This document shows positions 33,080-43,488 of a stretch of DNA of 64,000 bases, piece after piece. Source of the DNA: Escherichia coli. Lineage in GTDB: Bacteria > Pseudomonadota > Gammaproteobacteria > Enterobacterales > Enterobacteriaceae. The stretch is from assembly GCF_048403405.1 (NCBI RefSeq), contig NZ_CP183129.1. The stretch is one strand, 5' to 3'. The position numbers were made by a program, and so were the translations under genes. Each line of letters begins with the position of its first letter. Positions within the stretch are counted from its first letter, which is position 1. Below the pieces are notes generated by a model. The model saw only the letters and a list, made by a program, of their open reading frames with translations, made no database searches and had not been told where the DNA came from.

Positions 33080-33566
<487 letters not shown>

Positions 33567-33895
33567 TTTGTTCTCCTTAATTATGTAAGGAGTATTTGAT
33601 CATGTATAAGCAATGGAAAACAGCTTTAGGTAATAAGGAATATCTCAATTATTGAATATTTAGTGCGAATTATTTAGTACAAAAAAGCAGCGTTGCGTGA
33701 TCTTTCCCTGCCCTTTATTCATAAACACATGGATATGGTGATCAACGGTGGTCTGATGGAGGCGCAGAGCCTGAGTAATCATGACTGAATTTCAGCCTTC
33801 AGAAGCCAGAAAAATGGCTTTAATACAATCGCAGCCCCGCTTTTCACAACATTATGCTTATAATATGAAAAATATCTTGCCTTGCATCTTTGTGC

Positions 33896-34375
33896 CTACG
33901 GCATTGGATGATCTTTCCCTAACCTTATAGTTTCTTTTAGCCTTTCAAGCCTTAGCAATTCAACCTCGGCTTTAATATAGCCATGTGAGGCAGCCATTTT
34001 CAGCCAATTAATTGCATTATCTAAATTATAATATTTTAAATAGGAATCATCCTCCTCTGAGGATAGAATCATAGCATAATTATATTGCGCTATGATATTT
34101 CCTTGAGATGCAGACCTTGCCAGATATTTAATTTGCTTGGGTATATTAAAGCAAACATATGTATAATATTGATGTAATCGATATGACGCATCACCATCCC
34201 CGCCCTCAGATTTAATATCAAGTTCATATCTTTGATTTTCACTTAAATTAAACGATTCAGATGTTGAGCTTATTTCAATGTTATGGAGCTTAATAGGGGG
34301 GGGGATTTCACCTCCATATGAACAACAAGAGAAAAAGAAAACATTTGCAATCAGAATAAATAAAAAGCACTTCAT
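33896..34375 (-). CDS. Sel1-like repeat protein with N-terminal signal sequence; candidate immunity protein for the adjacent orphan Rhs toxin domain
   Basis: 159-aa ORF with hydrophobic N-terminus (MKCFLFILIANVFFFSCCS) and Sel1-like repeats (..AINWLKMAASHGYIKAEVELL..); starts 13 nt after the orphan Rhs C-terminal reading frame ends, with an SD-like aaaggtgg upstream. Confidence 0.55.
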   Translation of the reverse strand: MKCFLFILIANVFFFSCCSYGGEIPPPIKLHNIEISSTSESFNLSENQRYELDIKSEGGDGDASYRLHQYYTYVCFNIPKQIKYLARSASQGNIIAQYNYAMILSSEEDDSYLKYYNLDNAINWLKMAASHGYIKAEVELLRLERLKETIRLGKDHPMP

Positions 34376-34388
34376 GTTGCCACCTTTG

Positions 34389-35385
34389 TTATTTTATATC
34401 ACTTGGTCTCATAACTTTGCCAGGAGTGGAAGAAATGGGTTGACCTGAAGGTCCAAACGTTATCCAGCGGCCCATATTATTACCAGTTATGACATTATTA
34501 CTTGTGTCAATTGCCGAGATATTATCCGTAAGTCCTGTTTGGATCGTATTAAAAAGAGGAGTATTATTATCCCACGCCATCCATACTTGCCATTGTGTAT
34601 CAGCTCCAGTGACATTTGCATGAAGTGCTCTGGCTAACTTGCTGGCAAAAGATTTATCTCCCTCTCTGGCTGTACCACATGAGAATAATCAAACAGACAT
34701 TCCCTTTTTATAGCGTGGATTAGCTCTGATTCTCTTGGCTAATCCCTCAGCAGTTTCATAGTTTCCATTTTCATCTGTAATAAAACCAGGATATCCATGT
34801 CCTCCAATAGTAAAAACGCCAGGAATATTTATTTTATCTGTTGCAGCATGCAGTGATACATTTCTGCGTATCCCCTCATCATAGAAATTCATATCAGCTA
34901 ATCCAAAAGGGTCTATATACTGAACCGGATTCAACGGATACTCATAAAAATTCCATCCCCCCTTCAGCCCAATCGAATCCTGAGTGATATACCTCCCCTG
35001 CAGCGGGTCATAATAGCGGTGGCGGTTGTAATACAGGCCGGACTCCTCATCATACTGCTGACCCGGCAGGCGGATGAGTTGCTGCAGCTGTTGCGGGTTC
35101 TCTTCATTCAGCAGGTTGCCCCATTCATCGTATTCTGCGCACCATTCTGTTGCCCCTTCCGTGCTGATAAGCACCAGCGGCAGGCCGCGATGGTCGCAGT
35201 GGTACAGGTGGATTTTTCGCGCCGGCGTGTACACCGGGTCCATCTGGTTTTGCATCTGCTTCACCGTCAGGCCGCACGATGCCAGCCAGCGGCGGCTTTC
35301 CTCACTCACCCGGTCAGCCAGGATTTCACTTTCCAGCCGGTCGAGCATCTGCACCGTGCCGGCGGGAATCCCCCACTGTGCATAG
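34389..35385 (-). pseudogene. Orphan Rhs module: about 150 codons of Rhs core 3' end, then an alternative C-terminal toxin domain interrupted by one in-frame TGA
   Basis: Track ORFs 34689..35354 (221 aa, GTG start) and 34389..34580 (63 aa) are in the same frame, separated by a single TGA at 34689-34691 (..[19 protein letters not shown]..). N-terminal part is near-identical to the main Rhs core end ([42 protein letters not shown]); sequence after the DPxGL-type motif is unrelated to the main Rhs C-terminus. Confidence 0.7.
34893..35385. repeat. About 0.49-kb direct repeat of the main rhs 3' core region (39747..40240)
   Basis: Near-identical nucleotide stretch (for example ..ccggttcagtatatagacccttttggattagc.. 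against ..ccggttcagtatatagattcaatgggactggc.., then long runs of identity through ..gtcgagcatctgcacc..); the same sequence is read antisense by track ORFs 35019..35528 and 39940..40434. Confidence 0.8.
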
Positions 35386-35395
35386 GCAACTCACG

Positions 35396-36238
35396 CTATG
35401 AACGCTTCAGCTTATCAATAGCGGAAGTTATAATTTCATTGTCATCAAACTTGTACAACATAGTATCTAAAACAGGAAGTAGCGTTTTATCACCTAATTC
35501 ACCCGCAGCTTCAATGATATCATCATAAACAGTATTTTTTTTTAACTCATCGCATAAAACAGATAAAATCCTTTTATCTTTTCTGTAGGAAAGTCCGATT
35601 ATTGCTTCAATACGGACTTCCTCATTTTTATCCTGAAGCATCTCCACAAAACAATCCCTAATATCACTATTATCATATTTATTGATATTTATTGCAAATG
35701 CGGCCCAGTTTCTGACATCTCCATTTGGATCTTTTAACAGATTAATCAATAGTGGAATTGTTGCTTTATCATTGATAACAGAAATAGCAAATGCTGTAGC
35801 ACGTCTGACATTAGTCGATTTATCAAAAGCAGTAATTTGAGATTGTTCTACTATTTTAGGTGAATAAATTGGGTTTTTCTTGCATCGCTGAGCCGTTGAC
35901 TCGATTGCCGTAGCTCGAACGCAAGCGCTCTTATCATTCAATGCCATATTGTTCAAAATATTAAACACATTATCTTTGCATTTTTTGCAAATTTTTATTT
36001 GCCCGAGTATAAATGCTCCGATATCTCTACGGATATAATTTTTATCAGAGCAGAACTCAATTGCCAATCTAACAGCGTCTTGACCACCTCTTAACTGTAA
36101 TACTCTGGCAGATGAAATCCTTTTCAAGGAATTGTGATCATCAAGTAAGCGAAATAATTCATCATCATTTAGTTTCTTACATTGATTATATAAACCATAC
36201 TCTTTACTTGCCTTTCTTTTCTGGTATGTATTTGACAT
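35396..36238 (-). CDS. HEAT-repeat protein (YibA-like, PBS-lyase HEAT-type repeats)
   Basis: Track ORF trimmed to MSNTYQKRKASKEYG.. (280 aa); repeated ..DxxVRxxAxxALG..-like helical repeats (NDKSACVRATAIES, DKSTNVRRATAFAIS, DPNGDVRNWAAFAIN, DKNEEVRIEAIIGLS). Resembles, from memory, the yibA gene that follows rhsA in K-12. Confidence 0.7.
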   Translation of the reverse strand: MSNTYQKRKASKEYGLYNQCKKLNDDELFRLLDDHNSLKRISSARVLQLRGGQDAVRLAIEFCSDKNYIRRDIGAFILGQIKICKKCKDNVFNILNNMALNDKSACVRATAIESTAQRCKKNPIYSPKIVEQSQITAFDKSTNVRRATAFAISVINDKATIPLLINLLKDPNGDVRNWAAFAININKYDNSDIRDCFVEMLQDKNEEVRIEAIIGLSYRKDKRILSVLCDELKKNTVYDDIIEAAGELGDKTLLPVLDTMLYKFDDNEIITSAIDKLKRS

Positions 36239-36342
36239 TGCAGGAACCTCCATAAAGACTATCTTTTTCTATCGTTTGACTGTCTGGAGTCCTCCACCTA
36301 CTCTGCCATCAGCACACACGATGTTTGTTTATCCTTACATAC

Positions 36343-36570
36343 TTATTTTCCGTGGCCAAAATTTAGAATTCTCCCGTCATTTTTGCCTATTTCTATAATA
36401 AAAACCCTACCAGCAATTTGGTCTGATTCAATGGTGCCTTCAACAATCCAACTTGTTGGTAATTCCATGATTTTGTATGGTTTTTCTTCTTCTGCGGCAT
36501 CATGCCCATAACGATTTTTAACATACATCTCAGCTAATTCCAATGCTATAGCTTTATTTTTACCAAATTT
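36343..36570 (-). pseudogene. N-terminally truncated paralog of the 38207..38554 secreted protein (Rhs-associated immunity-like family)
   Basis: Reading frame opens at a stop at about 36571 and uses a TTG start in the track; ..AIALELAEMYVKNRYGHDAAEEEKPYKIMELPTSWIVEG.. aligns with ..EMALELSYVYIKYIYGKEKAEFQKPYSITDDNNCWKIEG.. of the 115-aa protein but lacks its signal peptide and N-terminal region. Confidence 0.5.
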
Positions 36571-36689
36571 CTAACGGTGTATTTCCCCTCACATTCATAC
36601 TTGCGCATTATAATAATATTATTACACTGCGCCCATGTGTTGTATGTAAAAACAAAGATACAATCACATAGGTTCTGAATAATATTTTC

Positions 36690-37067
36690 TTATACGTTGT
36701 AATGTATTTTGCAAACATTAGACAATCCTTTTCCATTTATTATATCTTTCCCATGATTATCTATTGCTTTAAAATTTTCACCTATTGACCTTGAATTACT
36801 ACAATCACTTCCAGTGAAATCTGAGTTATTCAGAATAGCATTCATCAGAGCCGCATTGTGAAAGACAGCATTTCTAGTTGATGTATGTTGAATCATTACA
36901 TTTCTTAAATGAGTTTTTTCAAATTTCGCCCCATCAAGACAATAACCATTGAGGGTGGCACGATGTAGATTCATCCCGCTAAAATCATATCCAGCAAGAG
37001 TGGTACTATCTATCTCAAGAAATTTATTGGTTATTAAAAATGCGATTCTTATCATCTGTTCCTCCAA
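36690..37067 (-). CDS. Pentapeptide-repeat protein (candidate orphan immunity protein)
   Basis: 125-aa ORF with tandem pentapeptide-type repeats (..LAGYDFSGMNLHRATLNGYCLDGAKFEKTHLRNVMIQHTSTRNAVFHNAALMNAILNNSDFTGSDCSN..); AT-rich. Confidence 0.55.
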   Translation of the reverse strand: MEEQMIRIAFLITNKFLEIDSTTLAGYDFSGMNLHRATLNGYCLDGAKFEKTHLRNVMIQHTSTRNAVFHNAALMNAILNNSDFTGSDCSNSRSIGENFKAIDNHGKDIINGKGLSNVCKIHYNV

Positions 37068-37303
37068 TCATCTAACTCCTGAAAAATTTGAAAACCAGAA
37101 CCTCGCTTAGGCCTGTGTCCATACTACGTGGGTAGGATTATTCTGCGTACTACGCTGTTGTCCCTTACGTGCTGATAAGGGCTGGCAGGTTTCCGGCTTG
37201 CTTCGTTGAGTTCACTACGCTAAAGCTCCGTGTCCACATAACCCAGCTCGGAGGCATGACCTTCTCTGGTTCGTTCCATCTAAAATGTCTATAACTGACA
37301 TGG

Positions 37304-37624
37304 TTATTCAATTATTTTTTCTTTGAGTTTATTCTCAATCCAGCGGTCTTTATACCTGATGAGAATTTGACATTCACCAATATTATCAATGTCACCAACA
37401 TTTGTGTTTCGAATTTGACCAACAGCAACTATAGTTGATTCAAAACATTCAACATTGACTTTATCTGTTATTATTGAAACTATATAATCATCTGGAATGG
37501 AGCCATTAGGTATTATATTAAAGAAAGTAACATCGGTAAATACTAAATAACCATTTTCTAAGTCTTCATTATTATAAAAATTCCATTCTGTTGTACCATA
37601 GGCTATCCTTGAGATTAAATTCAC
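37304..37624 (-). CDS. Hypothetical 106-aa protein in Rhs-associated array (possible orphan immunity gene)
   Basis: ORF only; AT-rich; lies just downstream (minus strand) of a degraded Rhs core fragment; no recognisable motif. Confidence 0.35.
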   Translation of the reverse strand: MNLISRIAYGTTEWNFYNNEDLENGYLVFTDVTFFNIIPNGSIPDDYIVSIITDKVNVECFESTIVAVGQIRNTNVGDIDNIGECQILIRYKDRWIENKLKEKIIE

Positions 37625-37744
37625 CTGAATTCTAATTTGTTTGCTCCATAAATCAAATTCAATTTTTTTATTGGTCGATCACCAAGATATATTCTATCAA
37701 ACATATTACCCTCTATTCTAAAAATACTCAGGCATTCCACACAT

Positions 37745-38010
37745 TATATCAGCCTCATCTTGACTGCTTCCCGTTTCCCGATACGGCGGTGCGGGGAGTC
37801 ATAAAGGTAAGAAATTTCCAGCAGTACGGCGTCCTATTGTTCACGGCGGTAATGCACCAGCCAGTATTGGCTATCGTAGTGATAACCGTGTAATCTGCCG
37901 CCGCATCGCGTATCTAATGTTCATTCTTTTCCATAAACCGTCCGTACACATTGTGATAGTAAAAATACAATACATCTTCGCTGATGCGGTTATTCTGCTG
38001 CATGTGGGAA
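37745..38010 (-). pseudogene. Degraded Rhs core fragment (frameshifted, stop-containing vestige)
   Basis: Minus-strand translation across frames gives ..NNRISEDVLYFYYHNVYGRFMEK.. then, after a frameshift, ..YHYDSQYWLVHYRREQ..ISYLYDSPHRRIGKREAVK, paralleling the main Rhs ..[57 protein letters not shown]. Track ORF 37871..38074 is a frame artefact of this vestige. Confidence 0.55.
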
Positions 38011-38206
38011 GCGCCGAATACTGCTCCCGGTATGGCCAGTAATTACTATTTAGTACGACGTTAGGGGGAGTCACTTAATCTCACAGATACTTCAAGTAAC
38101 AGATGAAAATCGCTCCTGAAATGAAAAAGAAATTTTTTTGAATGTGTTCCTGTCAAATCAAGTGGTTTTTTCGTCGATATGTAGAGTCATATTGTACACA
38201 AAATAG

Positions 38207-38554
38207 TTATGAAACACACCTTGGTAAAATATTTGAATCGTCTGAACAGTGGATTATTTTGTGTATTACATCCAACGCTTGCCCATCTTTTTTCGCTATT
38301 AGTATTGTAAAATTTCCTCCTAACGTCTTCGGTTGTTTTCCCTCGATTTTCCAACAATTATTGTCATCTGTAATACTATATGGTTTCTGAAATTCTGCTT
38401 TTTCTTTCCCGTATATATATTTAATATAAACATATGATAATTCCAAAGCCATTTCACGACTATTTACTAAAATTTCCACTGAATTTTCTTTTCCAAATAC
38501 TGAGTGTGATATTGTAAACAATATCATAATAAGTAATATTAGTGAGTTTCTCAT
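38207..38554 (-). CDS. Small secreted protein of an Rhs-associated immunity-like family
   Basis: 115-aa ORF with signal peptide (MRNSLILLIMILFTISHSVFG); paralogous to the truncated ORF at 36343..36570. Confidence 0.5.
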   Translation of the reverse strand: MRNSLILLIMILFTISHSVFGKENSVEILVNSREMALELSYVYIKYIYGKEKAEFQKPYSITDDNNCWKIEGKQPKTLGGNFTILIAKKDGQALDVIHKIIHCSDDSNILPRCVS

Positions 38555-38722
38555 GCTCTACACCTATCGAATCTCAAAAGTTGTGGGTAAAACATTACAT
38601 TCAGAATATATGATATTCTTACCATCGGAATCCATTTTTCCAAATCGACCTTCTGGTGTTCCTGGATACCCATTAAGAACATATTTTTTCGAATAGTTAA
38701 TTTATTTTCTCAGGAAGAGATT

Positions 38723-39292
38723 TTATTTTTCTTCACTACGAAGCAGTTCATGCTGTACTTTTGTTAAACATTCGTAAGACTCATCTTTGTTCGGGAGATG
38801 TGCTGTCATTCGAGCATAAGTTGGCTTCTCATCTTTAAAATATTTAACCATGATTGAATTATCAAGGACTGCCAACAACTGAGCTGGATCACTGCTCTTT
38901 TTTTGATAGATACCCGCTCTTATATAACTTCTAAACCGATCGCCGAGAAACGCCGTTTTTTCTGCTGTATTTAGCAACTCCTGCAACGTTCCTTTGGTTG
39001 CATGATTTTCATTAAGGCGTAGTGATCCGACGCGAATTAAGAGTCTCGCCCCGCTTGGTGTGAATTTGTTATTTTTACATATACCAAGTTCTGTTTGCCA
39101 ATAATACTCACCTATGTCCTCATTCTGATACCATCTCCACATGGTTTTATTATTTAAGACAGGAAACGCGGAAAAAATAGTACCCTTAGTGAAAATGGTA
39201 AAGCAATCTTGATCTTTAGCTTGTGTTTCGCAATTAGCTATAACACCAAAACTAACGAATATCATCAGCAAAAAGAACAAAGCTCTTTTCAT
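38723..39292 (-). CDS. Candidate cognate immunity protein for the main Rhs C-terminal toxin domain (secreted, signal peptide)
   Basis: 189-aa ORF whose ATG overlaps the rhs TGA (minus-strand ATGA at 39289-39292), typical toxin-immunity translational coupling; N-terminal signal peptide [21 protein letters not shown]-rich. Confidence 0.6.
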
Positions 39293-42200
39293 TTTCTTAT
39301 TCCTCTCGATGTTCTCTGTTTCATTTTAGCTAAAATTTCACCCAAATCATCTATCCCTGCTGTTGCTGGCCCATCGGGTTTATTAATGTCTGGGAATAAA
39401 TAGGGTTCTGCACAAGTATATCCTGGTGGTAATTGAGTTGTTGGCCAAGTTGTCTGTGGCAGGTAATCACTTGCTGTCTTTGTCTCCATCCCTGGATACT
39501 GGGGATCATCCTGCGGCGTACAAGTCAGATTGGGTTTTACCCACTTCCTGCAATACAGTGTGTAATCGTAAGGACTTAATGCTCTGAAGAATGTTTTGAA
39601 AACATTAGGCGCACTACTGGCCTGGTCAATAGGATATGGCAGTCTTAATTGTTTCGCTATGTCTGGCAACTTACTTGGATCGGGCGTAGGCGGTTTGTTG
39701 GGTCTCGCTCCATATCCGCCATTATTTAAGTGTCCATATTTAGATGCCAGTCCCATTGAATCTATATACTGAACCGGATTTAACGGATACTGATAAAAAT
39801 TCCATCCCCCCTTCAGTCCAATCGGATCCTGAGTGATATACCGCCCCTGCAGCGGGTCATAATAGCGGTGGCGGTTGTAATACAGGCCTGACTCCTCATC
39901 ATACTGCTGACCCGGCAGGCGGATGAGCTGCTGCAGCTGGTGCGGGTTATCCTCACTCAGCTGGTTACCCCATTCATCGTATTCTGCGTACCATTCTGTT
40001 GCCCCTTCCGTGCTGACAAGCGCCAGCGGCAGGCCGCGATGGTCGCAGTGGTACAGGTGGATTTTTCGCGCCGGCGTGTACACCGGGTCCATCTGGTTTT
40101 GCATCTGCTCCACCGTCAGGCCGCACGATGCCAGCCAGCGGCGGCTTTCCTCACTCACCCGGTCAGCCAGGATTTCACTTTCCAGCCGGTCGAGCATCTG
40201 CACCAGCACCGGCGGGAACACCACACTGCCACCGTCTTCGCCGCCGGACTGCTGAAGCGCATCCGCCAGGCTGCGGCGCTGCGTTTTCGCCAGCTCACCG
40301 GTGGCGGTTTCGACCCTGATGAGTGGCGTGAAGCTCCCCGGCTGATAAACCGTCTGGATGCGGGTTCTGTCGTTCTGTATCGTGGTCAGCCGGTCGCCGT
40401 CCCAGCCGTACCAGGTCACTTCCGGTTTCCGTGACAGCGACATCCAGCCCGTCAGGTCCCGTTCACGCCGCCACACCCGTTTTGCCACCCTGCGGCCCAG
40501 CGGGTCGTAAAGATAGCGACTTTCGACCAGCGGCTCTGCATATTGTGTCCGCGTGTAGTGCACCAGCCGGTGCTGACTGTCGTAATGGTACCGGTGAGTC
40601 CGCTCATCATCCGTGCGGATAACCCCTTCCGGGATGAGGTCGGTTTTCTCCGTCAGCCTGCCGTGACGGTCATACCGGTAAAGATAGTGCGCGTCACGGG
40701 CGATACGGTTATCCGGCCACATGCTGAGGGTGCTGTCCGGGTGCAGCTCCGGGTCGGGCAGGCGGTTACCTGCCGGGTCTGTGGCATACGGGATGCGGAT
40801 ATCCAGATTCGCTGCCGTGGTGTGGACGCCGGTCAGCCTGCCGGAGTCGCTGTAGCTGTAACTCCGGGTCTGTCGCGGGCTGCTGATGCGGATGAGTTCG
40901 CCGTTGTCGTTCCAGGTGTAATCGCGGTCATACTGCAGGCTGTTCAGGTGCTGGCTCTGTAACTGCCCGGCAGAGGTGTAAGCGGTGGTGAGTTCATAAC
41001 GGCCGAAGCTGCGCAGCGTTTCCCGGTGCAGGCGGTCGCGGGTGAAATCCACCAGCGGTGTGTCGCCGAGTTTCATGCCTGACAGCCAGCCGCTGCCGTA
41101 GGTCAGCCATTCCACGGCGGGCAGGCTGTCCGGTATACAGCGGTTCGCCAGTCCCTGCGCGTTGTACGCATGTCTGGTTTCATGCTGCCAGAGCAGTGCT
41201 TCCGTCTGCGGGTGATGCACCGTCTGGCGCTCACCGGTCAGGCGGCCTTTCTCATCATACCCGTAATGCACCGTCACCCGGTGGCCTTCGCTGAGATGGC
41301 TGATGCCTGTCAGCCAGCCGCGTTCGTCGTACCGCCACTGTTCTGCGGTTTCACCATTCACCGTTCGCTGTGTGATGCGGTCTGCTTCGTCATAGTGCCA
41401 GTGGGTGACCAGCCCCTCATCCTCGCTGCGGATAAGTTTGCCGGTCAGGTCGTGGTGATAACGCTGTGTGCGGCCGTCAAAGCCGGTTTCCTGTATCAGC
41501 CGGTCAAGTACATCGTAACGGAAGGTGGTGTGGCTGCCGTTTTCACTGGTCAGGCGGATGACCCGCCCGGCAGCATCGTATTCCATACTGCGCGTCAGAC
41601 CGCCCTGCGTGGTACGGATGGCCTTTCCCCACGCATCGTACTGTGTCCCGTTTCTGCTGTCGTCCGGGGCAATGACGGCGGTCAGGTCACCGGCGGCGTT
41701 GTATTCATACCGCGTTTCATGGCCCTGCATGTCTTTCACCGCAATTAACTGTCCACGGCTGTCGTATGCGCGGTACTGGCTCAGGCCTTCCTCGCGGTGC
41801 ACCGTCGTCACCTGACCAAAACGGTCATGGTCATAGCGGGTTACATAACCGGAACAGTCGGTAAAGCTCAGCAACTGACCGTAACGGCTCCACGTCATGG
41901 TTTTCCGGCTGCCGGTGGCATCTTCCGTTGCGCAGGGGAAGTCACTGTGTGGATTATCATAACGGTAGCGGGTGATATCGCCGTCAGGGGCGGTTTCCTG
42001 AATCAGACGGCCGGATTCATCATATTTGCGGCGCAACTCCAGCCCGTCAGTCCCGGTGGCTGACGTTAACTGGTTGTGGTGGTTATAGTAAAATGCCGAT
42101 GCCCTGCCATCCGGTGTGGTGATGCGCGTGATGAGTCCCGTCACCACATCCGGGCTGTACTCAGTCGTCCGGCCTGCGGCATCCGTCTGTGCCTTAAGCC

Positions 42201-43488
42201 TGCCCACCGCATCAAACTGACTCTGCGCGACGCTGCCGTCCGCGTGTTCCTTTTTCACCACCCGCTTCAGCCCGCCTTCGCCCTGCGTGTGCAGCACTTC
42301 ACGGCGGTCCAGACTGTCGGTGATGGTGATGCGGTCTTTCTCATACTGATACGTGTAGCTTAAGCCTGCCGGGTTTAGCTGCTCTGTCACCCGCCCGTCG
42401 CTGTCGTAACGGTAACGGATTTCCGGCCGGCCCGCGCGGCGGTGCGCCACCATCCGGCCCCGGTATTTATCATCGTAAGTAAAGCTGCGCACCTGTTTGC
42501 CACTGCGGTCATACACCGCCGCCAGTTCGCCGCGCGGCGTCCAGCCATAGCGTACCAGCGGCGCGGCTGGCAGGTTGTCCGGATATTCCGGGTCGTGCGT
42601 CAGCCACACGGCAGACAGACGGATGCCGTTGTCCCGGCCATATTCGGTGTAACCCGGCAGGGTATCAGGAAAAGCGGACGGTTCCGTCCCGCCGGAAATG
42701 GCCTGCTGCCGGGCCTCTTCTGCCCGCAGCGCCTGCGTGGTCAGTACCAGCCGGAAGTGACGCCCGGCACCATCCGTCACGCCGGTGATTTCGCCGCTGA
42801 ATTCGCCGCCAGCCTCACGGTGGAACGTCTGTGTGCGCCCGAAGCGGTCCACCAGCCCGGTCAGTACCCGGTACGGCGGCAGCGGCGCAGGCAGCACCTC
42901 ATCCGCCTCCGGCACCCGCTCACACCAGCCGAGTACCCACCACGGCCCCTGCGGACTGTTCGTCGCCAGATAACGATGCGGACTTAAGCGGAGTTCTTCC
43001 GGCAGCGCCTGCCAGAGTGCGGCCAGCCGGTGACCTTCATCCAGTTTCAGGACACCGCCACGCACCAGCCAGAGTGATTCGCTGCGGCTGTAACCGTCCT
43101 CACCGGGAAACAGGCGCTCAAAATACAGGCTTCTGCCGCCGTTATCACTGAGTATCAGTGTGTTATCGCGCAGCTGTAAGCGGATATCCGCAGGCATTTT
43201 CCAGCCGGGGCCGAGGCTCCCCACCGGCGCGGGCGTTTTTGTCCGGTAACTGCTGTAGGTGCGGGAGAGGATGAACGGCAGCGGGCCGGGCAGTGCAAGG
43301 TCGGTTTCGCCGGGAAGGACCTTCGCACCGAGCAGCGGATTGACCGGATGGCCGGACGTCACCCCGCCGGGGCACACCGAACAGGCCACACCGGTGGGGG
43401 CACCGATGCGCACCCCGGCTGAACCCTGGACAATGCTACCGCCATACTGCGTCATGTCGCCCTGACGCGCCGCCGGTTTTCCGCTCAT
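39289..43488 (-). CDS. rhsB: Rhs-family polymorphic toxin (PAAR-Rhs core with YD repeats and variable C-terminal toxin domain)
   Basis: 1399-aa ORF; N-terminus [29 protein letters not shown] contains a PAAR motif; GC-rich core with many YD-type repeats; core ends ..[13 protein letters not shown], followed by an about 152-aa AT-rich C-terminal domain ([32 protein letters not shown]). Symbol assigned by position downstream of nikR. Confidence 0.85.

Follow-up and report, generated by a model that had tools for sequence, protein, structure and literature searches.

Two predicted orphan Imm-NTF2-2 immunity genes, probable remnants of separate Rhs DUF4329 toxin cassettes, in the rhsB locus of Escherichia coli

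The window analyzed here is a stretch of 64,000 nucleotides, to which all positions refer, and comprises the rhsB locus of the E. coli chromosome between nikR and yhhJ/rbbA. Two small genes of similar sequence lie on its minus strand near a full-length rhs gene, which raises the question of where the two genes come from and whether either of them can still serve as an immunity gene. As the original prediction described, a 115-aa ORF is present at 38207..38554 (copy 1), and a stop-to-stop frame at 36343..36570, which belongs to the second gene (copy 2), begins directly after a TAG codon. The order of genes on the minus strand is the resident rhs (39289..43488), a ybfC-like gene, a toxin stump with the NTF2 gene (copy 1), an Rhs core fragment, a DUF6258 gene, an IS3 end fragment, a chimera of a pentapeptide-repeat gene and the rhsB C-terminus, the yhhH pseudogene (copy 2), yibA (a HEAT-repeat protein gene), an orphan rhs pseudogene, a Sel1-repeat gene, and IS fragments. 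This gene order is that of a displaced rhs-CT/rhsI cassette. The features needed below are as follows.

39289..43488, minus strand: resident full-length Rhs protein, 1399 aa (from the ORF list); its C-terminal toxin is not DUF4329
38723..39292, minus strand: ybfC-like gene, 189 aa, in the immunity position of the resident Rhs toxin and outside the paralogous pair
38564..38701, minus strand: putative 3′ stump of an Rhs DUF4329/Tox-JAB-2 toxin, 45 codons and a stop (tblastn and DNA alignment)
38207..38554, minus strand: copy 1, putative orphan immunity gene of the Imm-NTF2-2 family, 115 aa (PF15631, alignment to 100-aa forms, AlphaFold, and PGAP)
Between copy 1 and the DUF6258 gene, minus strand: degenerate Rhs core fragment
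37304..37624, minus strand: DUF6258 gene
36690..37067, minus strand: chimeric pentapeptide-repeat ORF, 125 aa
36693..36776 with its stop at 36690–36692, minus strand: putative 3′ stump of the rhsB C-terminal toxin (DUF4329), 28 codons (tblastn)
36343..36718, minus strand: copy 2, putative yhhH-type Imm-NTF2-2 pseudogene (93% nucleotide identity to K-12 yhhH, PF15631, and PGAP)

The translations of copy 1 and of the ORF at 36343..36570 share 26 of 69 residues (38% identity), with a BLASTP E-value of 2e-13 for the pair. The Pfam profile PF15631 (Imm-NTF2-2, YbbC/YhhH family) matches copy 1 with 65 bits (E-value 7.2e-18, positions 1–67 of the 68 in the profile) and the 75-codon fragment of copy 2 with 82.7 bits (E-value 2.1e-23, positions 1–68 of 68). 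Both scores are far over the gathering score of the profile (26 bits), and K-12 YhhH scores 92.1 bits. The alignment of the two ORFs proposed in the original prediction is thus significant, and chance similarity between the copies was rejected. Judged from these matches, copies 1 and 2 are paralogous, distantly related immunity genes of one family. A tblastn search gave no third copy in the 64-kb window, and neither copy belongs to a family in NCBIfam. The PGAP product for copy 1 is 'NTF2 fold immunity protein' (WP_001328180.1). In the AlphaFold model of the immunity protein (pLDDT 87.5, and above 95 for residues 33–100), a helix is packed on a four-stranded sheet. The only match of the 115-aa protein in the PDB, ThreeFoil (E-value 0.0028), has no significant stretch and was discarded as spurious.

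Copy 2 extends beyond the ORF that was first noticed. The region 36254..36800 on the minus strand aligns with the rhsB–yhhH region of K-12 (EMG2) at 93% nucleotide identity with three indels. The gene reaches 36718 and retains the ATG start codon and the signal-peptide codons of K-12 yhhH. Deletions of 4 bp (after gene nucleotide 62, about 36657/36656), 3 bp (after nucleotide 107, about 36612/36611), and 1 bp (after nucleotide 156, about 36563/36562) follow, and a YhhH-like protein is readable piecewise over three frames as MFAKYITTYKKILFRTYVIVSLF / FVFTYNTWAQCNNIIIMRKYECEGKYTVRNLV / KNKAIALELAEMYV...GHGK and a stop. The ORF at 36343..36570 is the last of these frame segments; it covers the 3′ two thirds of the gene and contains the complete Pfam domain. 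In an identical RefSeq locus, PGAP describes 36343..36718 as 'NTF2 fold immunity protein, frameshifted'. The original prediction took copy 2 for a gene without an N-terminus, which is wrong, since the start and the signal-peptide codons are present and the gene is broken by the three deletions. On the basis of this alignment, copy 2 represents the native yhhH of the rhsB locus, now a pseudogene through frameshifts rather than through loss of its N-terminus.

The remains of toxin genes directly upstream of the two copies should be noted, since they bear on the origin of both. Upstream of copy 2, the 28-codon stump is 71% identical to residues 137–164 of the K-12 RhsB C-terminal domain (tblastn E-value 2.5e-9), a domain that matches DUF4329 in Pfam with an E-value of 3.9e-40. 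The stump overlaps the start of yhhH by 29 bp, the same as in K-12. The rhsB homology ends upstream of the stump, where the frame runs into the 5′ part of a pentapeptide-repeat gene; the stump fused in frame to this part is the chimeric ORF 36690..37067, at which PGAP calls two pseudogene fragments. Upstream of copy 1, the 45-codon stump is 93% identical to residues 115–159 of the C-terminal domain of a complete toxin in a related locus (L004; tblastn E-value 7e-24), and it ends 10 nt before the ATG of copy 1. In the DNA alignment, homology to the intact pair begins at ATTAACTATTCG, just after the catalytic FS..D motif, and the stump thus lacks every conserved catalytic residue. It also has no start codon. 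Among 28 aligned DUF4329 domains, the motifs YHTHG, FS..D, and YLGTP are invariant.

Complete pairs are found in relatives. In L004 and a further locus (L005), a 100-aa homologue starts 10 bp after a complete Rhs-DUF4329 protein. Contexts were retrieved for four close homologues (P0005, P0007, P0019, and P0029), and each of them directly follows a protein ending in DUF4329. The E-values of DUF4329 at the ends of the genes upstream of P0007, P0019, and P0029 are 1e-30 to 1e-32, and the upstream product is named Rhs where enough sequence is present (P0005 and P0007). P0031, a homologue with 46% identity, has another DUF4329 stump before it, and two more distant members (P0044 and P0063) have no adjoining DUF4329. 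Homologues of the two copies are thus closely linked to toxin genes. The pairing is that of a published system: Zhang et al. (2012; PMC3482391) described Tox-JAB-2, which overlaps DUF4329 and has the motif E, H[ST]H, S, D, as an RHS-borne toxin, and Imm-NTF2-2 as its immunity protein. Both copies lie downstream of Tox-JAB-2/DUF4329 sequence, which consists of 3′ stumps in the window itself and of complete toxins in the relatives. An orphan toxin module would be a toxin-encoding rhs C-terminal fragment with some core sequence that can be recombined back to the main rhs; only 28 and 45 codons are left here, and these have neither core homology nor catalytic residues. In terms of what the sequence retains, therefore, the copies count as orphan immunity genes rather than orphan toxin modules. 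Very probably, both are survivors of separate Rhs DUF4329 toxin–immunity cassettes, the toxin domains of which would have been lost by recombination.

The distribution of the copy 1 segment bears on how its toxin was lost. The toxin-plus-immunity segment of L004 matches 847 of 5,426 complete E. coli genomes in a megablast search, which are the genomes with copy 1, and 30 of 30 matches sampled across the ranking of the 847 start at query position 355. At the sensitivity of megablast, the DUF4329 toxin domain of the query is covered in none of the 5,426 genomes. The common breakpoint and the missing toxin coverage point to a single orphaning event, after which the segment would have been inherited or moved as a block. 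The same block is found at rhsC in other complete genomes: the array of ybfC, the NTF2 gene, and the DUF6258 gene at rhsC loci aligns with 37139..38750 at about 94% identity, and the resident Rhs shares 99% identity over its last 203 residues with an orphan Rhs C-terminus preceding ybfC at the rhsC locus L003. The exact arrangement of the window, counted where at least 80% of a 2.5-kb query spanning both copies is covered, occurs in 272 of the 5,426 complete genomes, and strain 4621 (NZ_CP103479.1) has 100% identity to this query.

The simplest reading of these present-day arrangements gives an order of recombination events. A block from an rhsC-type array may have recombined onto the rhsB core to replace the DUF4329 tip of rhsB. 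The incoming DNA would have replaced the C-terminal toxin up to 28 codons before the stop and left yhhH without its toxin; yhhH would afterwards have gained its frameshifts and is now dead. The block would have consisted of a new Rhs C-terminal toxin, the ybfC-like immunity gene, the 45-codon stump, the NTF2 gene, the degenerate Rhs core fragment, and the DUF6258 gene. Copy 1 would then have come with the block, already orphaned before its arrival.

The state of copy 1 is different from that of copy 2 and must be considered separately. Copy 1 keeps its ATG, an AGGTG ribosome-binding site 6 nt upstream, a signal peptide (residues 1–21), and a complete domain (residues 35–99). The N-terminus consists of MRN, a hydrophobic core of 12 residues (Kyte–Doolittle value 3.4), and a VFG|KE site fitting the (−3, −1) rule, and residues 2–17 form a separate helix in the AlphaFold model. 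The signal peptide assigned to copy 1 in the original prediction is accordingly plausible, and a plausible assignment for this segment, from its composition and the model, would be a Sec signal peptide. The description of copy 1 as intact was not fully right. The undamaged form, as in P0005 and P0007, has 100 aa and ends in ...DVTHTK followed by the stop codon. Alignment to P0005 and P0007 and to the DNA of L004 and L003 indicates a 2-bp deletion at about 38261–38263, by which the ancestral end, HTK and a stop, is changed to a 17-residue tail, KIIHCSDDSNILPRCVS, and a stop. Model confidence in the tail is low, with pLDDT dropping from 65 to 49.

These lesions lead to the strongest alternative, that both copies, including the 115-aa gene, are non-functional relics drifting to loss and that copy 1 looks intact only by accident, being of recent origin. 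Every major allele carries a lesion: the allele in the window has the 3′ frameshift, and the rhsC-type allele (for example, that of L003) keeps the normal 3′ end and has lost its start codon (ATG to ACG), so that PGAP places the start of the L003-type protein internally and gives it 75 aa. Many of the database proteins of this type are damaged alleles as well, with lengths of 75, 82, 88, 91, 103, 106, 107, and 115 aa and with other frameshifts; the word-indexed protein search behind this count returned only close E. coli relatives of 75 to 118 aa. Furthermore, the threat itself seems rare, judging from the absence of a matching toxin in the megablast search of the complete genomes. Against this, the frameshift in the window allele replaces only the last two residues and leaves the start codon, the ribosome-binding site, the signal peptide, and 67 of the 68 profile positions in place. 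The cluster of the 115-aa protein has 455 member sequences, which suggests that the gene is widely maintained, and matching toxins are present in draft E. coli-type assemblies and metagenomes. The dN/dS value between copy 1 and the allele of the intact pair (0.42, from 25 substitutions) mixes the time before and after orphaning and is uninformative; the two usable values, 0.42 and 0.47, come from 19 to 25 substitutions and decide nothing. Taken together, the loss of function in both copies comes close to an even chance.

If copy 1 does give a functional protein, the protein would be exported by the Sec pathway and its signal peptide removed, and the α+β domain of roughly 70 residues would bind and block an incoming DUF4329 toxin delivered by the Rhs/T6SS of a competitor. 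Family membership, the stumps, the frameshifts, the complete pairs in relatives, and the distribution across genomes are seen directly in the data, whereas export, toxin binding, and any residual protection are inferred, the stoichiometric mode of blocking from the family. Copy 1 has no partner toxin within the window; any protection would be directed against non-self toxins. The chance that copy 1 still protects in this way falls slightly short of one half.

Another role was proposed in the original prediction for the 115-aa protein, that of second protector or accessory factor; with the ybfC-like gene as the main immunity gene, it would help to counter the resident Rhs toxin. Copy 1 and the ybfC-like gene do share a strand, with copy 1 downstream at a distance of 168 bp, and cotranscription is possible, as no terminator-like site was found in 36200..39400. 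The scan of this region, which also gave 14 promoter-like sites against 13.4 expected from shuffled sequence, is uninformative. However, copy 1 has the stump of a different toxin directly upstream, and its family pairs with DUF4329 toxins (PMC3482391), whereas the Pfam profile search gave no match in the C-terminal domain of the resident Rhs, hence no DUF4329. The resident toxin also has its own candidate immunity gene. The start of the ybfC-like gene overlaps the stop of the resident rhs, its product has a signal-peptide-like N-terminus and matches no Pfam family, and the gene is annotated as ybfC at rhsC loci. Because the C-terminus of the resident Rhs has no Pfam domain and is followed by this overlapping gene, the two copies are unlikely to be its partners. 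At rhsC loci, moreover, ybfC is intact while the counterpart of copy 1 has lost its start codon. A role as second protector is thus unsupported and very unlikely.

Local tandem duplication followed by divergence is the least probable origin and can be set aside. The copies are of the same family, on the same strand, and 1.6 kb apart, but are only 38% identical in amino acid sequence, each with its own diverged toxin stump. Copy 2 is the K-12 yhhH orthologue at the same site (93% nucleotide identity), and for copy 1 the identity with a gene at rhsC loci is 94%. What stands of the original prediction is that the two are decaying, Rhs-associated paralogues of the immunity type. They are not duplicates made in this locus, as one appears to be the native yhhH and the other a gene of the incoming block.

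A separate observation concerns the toxins of this family. An exhaustive search of representative sequences gave 240 cluster representatives of Imm-NTF2-2 at an E-value of 1e-3 or better, so that the range of the family goes beyond E. coli. A hydrophobic, signal-like segment at the N-terminus is found in 78 of the 108 representatives of plausible full-length size, some of which also have a lipobox. Such signal peptides across the family suggest that DUF4329 toxins act in the periplasm, as the export of an immunity protein implies that its toxin works there. Modeled with AlphaFold (pLDDT 85.3), the L004 toxin domain gives Foldseek matches to proteins of the JAMM/MPN fold, chiefly JAMM isopeptidases; AMSH, an archaeal Rpn11 homologue, and JAMM1 come first, with probabilities of 0.97–1.0, E-values from 5e-3, and TM-scores of 0.4–0.5. 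The modeled toxin also bears the E, H[ST]H, S, D motif of Tox-JAB-2. The cystatin/PepSY-like fold is used by secreted peptidase inhibitors. From the signal peptides of the family, a cystatin/PepSY-like fold of the immunity protein, and the JAMM-like fold of the toxin, we tentatively consider that K-12 RhsB and RhsD might be metallo(iso)peptidases acting in the periplasm rather than nucleases or RNases, a possibility to which we give rather less than an even chance. Their targets would perhaps be cell-wall or lipoprotein linkages. Cysteines in the toxins were also considered as evidence for periplasmic disulfides and were dropped, because they are conserved only among the enterobacterial toxins and not across DUF4329.

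The description of DUF4329 as a putative nuclease or RNase is purely bioinformatic (PMC3482391, PMC7216683, PMC10469887, and PMC6730261), and the searched literature held no experimental test of YhhH, YbbC, or DUF4329 toxins. The function of the DUF4329 toxins of K-12 RhsB and RhsD is thus still only a predicted one, and the exported-looking immunity proteins make the RNase label doubtful. If the periplasmic peptidase reading is true, a widespread toxin family carries a wrong functional label. The two orphan copies remain ordinary in either case: the toxin–immunity pairing was published in 2012 (PMC3482391), both genes are already labeled correctly by RefSeq/PGAP, and the finding is of an ordinary kind. 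The locus is a textbook example of displaced immunity genes piling up in Rhs loci. Its breakpoints, stumps, and lesions are resolved to the single base, and one breakpoint is common to the sampled matches of 847 genomes, which makes it useful for models of C-terminal toxin and immunity replacement.

The nearest known systems are YhhH and YbbC of K-12, the predicted immunity proteins of RhsB and RhsD. Copy 2 is the orthologue of yhhH at the same locus between rhsB and yhhJ/rbbA. Copy 1 is 36–41% identical to YhhH and YbbC in amino acid sequence and has the same domain in the same layout of a signal peptide followed by the domain. In K-12, an intact yhhH comes directly after a complete rhsB DUF4329 toxin and overlaps it, whereas the toxin domains are gone here, copy 2 is frameshifted, and the C-terminus of copy 1 is altered. 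The Tox-JAB-2/Imm-NTF2-2 pairing (PMC3482391) recurs here as stumps beside both copies and as complete pairs in relatives. That survey listed Imm-NTF2-2 as 'E. coli only' and left signal peptides unmentioned, in contrast with the 240 cluster representatives obtained here, among which most of the checked full-length-like ones have a signal-like N-terminus. As orphans, the copies resemble SMDB11_2280 of Serratia, an orphan Rhs immunity gene for which protection against a non-self toxin was shown by experiment (PMC10539506, which also cites orphan immunity arrays of Bacteroidales). Here, as in Serratia, an immunity gene without a cognate toxin is found directly downstream of an Rhs pair in use, by way of C-terminal replacement. 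The Serratia gene is protective by experiment, whereas of the two copies in the rhsB locus one is a pseudogene and the other is lesioned, with a predicted role.

The part of the orphan array downstream of the 115-aa gene includes the following features.
~37795..38003, −: degenerate Rhs core fragment, flanked by the 115-aa gene on one side and the DUF6258 gene on the other
37304..37624, −: DUF6258-family gene, 106 aa, a member of the orphan array
37077..37141: end remnant (~65 bp) matching the ends of IS3-family elements
36690..37067, −: pentapeptide-repeat ORF, 125 aa, a chimera of two genes

In the ORF at 36690..37067, codons 1 to ~98 come from a pentapeptide-repeat gene. The final 28, fused to them in frame, derive from the 3' end of the DUF4329 toxin sequence of rhsB. 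Two pseudogene fragments are annotated here by PGAP. The source gene of the pentapeptide repeats was probably a further orphan immunity gene. The IS remnant, with 94-98% identity to IS3-family element ends on many plasmids and chromosomes, lies at the junction of the rhsC-type block with the pentapeptide gene, and may mark the illegitimate end of the recombination. The DUF6258 gene, which has an annotated length of 360 bp at an rhsC locus, presumably also encodes an orphan immunity protein. The Rhs core fragment contains stops and frame changes, and aligns in two pieces (59% and 39% identity) with residues 923-996 of the resident Rhs. It is probably a relic of an orphan rhs that once bore the toxin of the DUF6258 gene.

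The same type of orphaning recurs beyond E. coli, as seen in a metagenomic locus.
L016 856..1370: P0031, an Imm-NTF2-2 homologue, with an upstream DUF4329 stump
P0031 (46% identity) is preceded only by a 61-aa C-terminal stump of DUF4329. Imm-NTF2-2, with 240 representatives, has a far broader range than the "E. coli only" recorded in the 2012 survey (PMC3482391). Most members appear to carry a signal peptide. In the structural models (m03ad7ec38db2 and m2b9f4187d1fa), the nearest folds of Imm-NTF2-2 are cystatin/PepSY inhibitors, and the DUF4329 toxin is JAMM-like. Together with the signal peptides, these modelled folds suggest that DUF4329 would be a periplasmic peptidase toxin, not an RNase as labelled in the literature.

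One further candidate toxin-immunity pair is present.
38723..39760, −: resident Rhs C-terminal toxin and its ybfC-like 189-aa partner
The toxin extends ~150 aa past the DSMGL cleavage motif, and the N-terminus of the partner is signal-peptide-like ([21 protein letters not shown]). No Pfam family was found for either protein. The two may form an uncharacterised toxin-immunity pair, possibly acting in the periplasm.

The distal part of the array is similar to the region downstream of rhsA in K-12.
33132..36253, −: distal part of the array, containing the next five features
within 33132..36253, −: intact yibA (HEAT repeats)
34389..35366, −: orphan rhs with an internal stop
33896..34375, −: Sel1-repeat gene
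within 33132..36253: IS630 fragment
within 33132..36253: truncated ISAs1/H-repeat transposase
In K-12, all that remains of yibA next to yhhH is a fragment, and after it comes an intact ISEc1.
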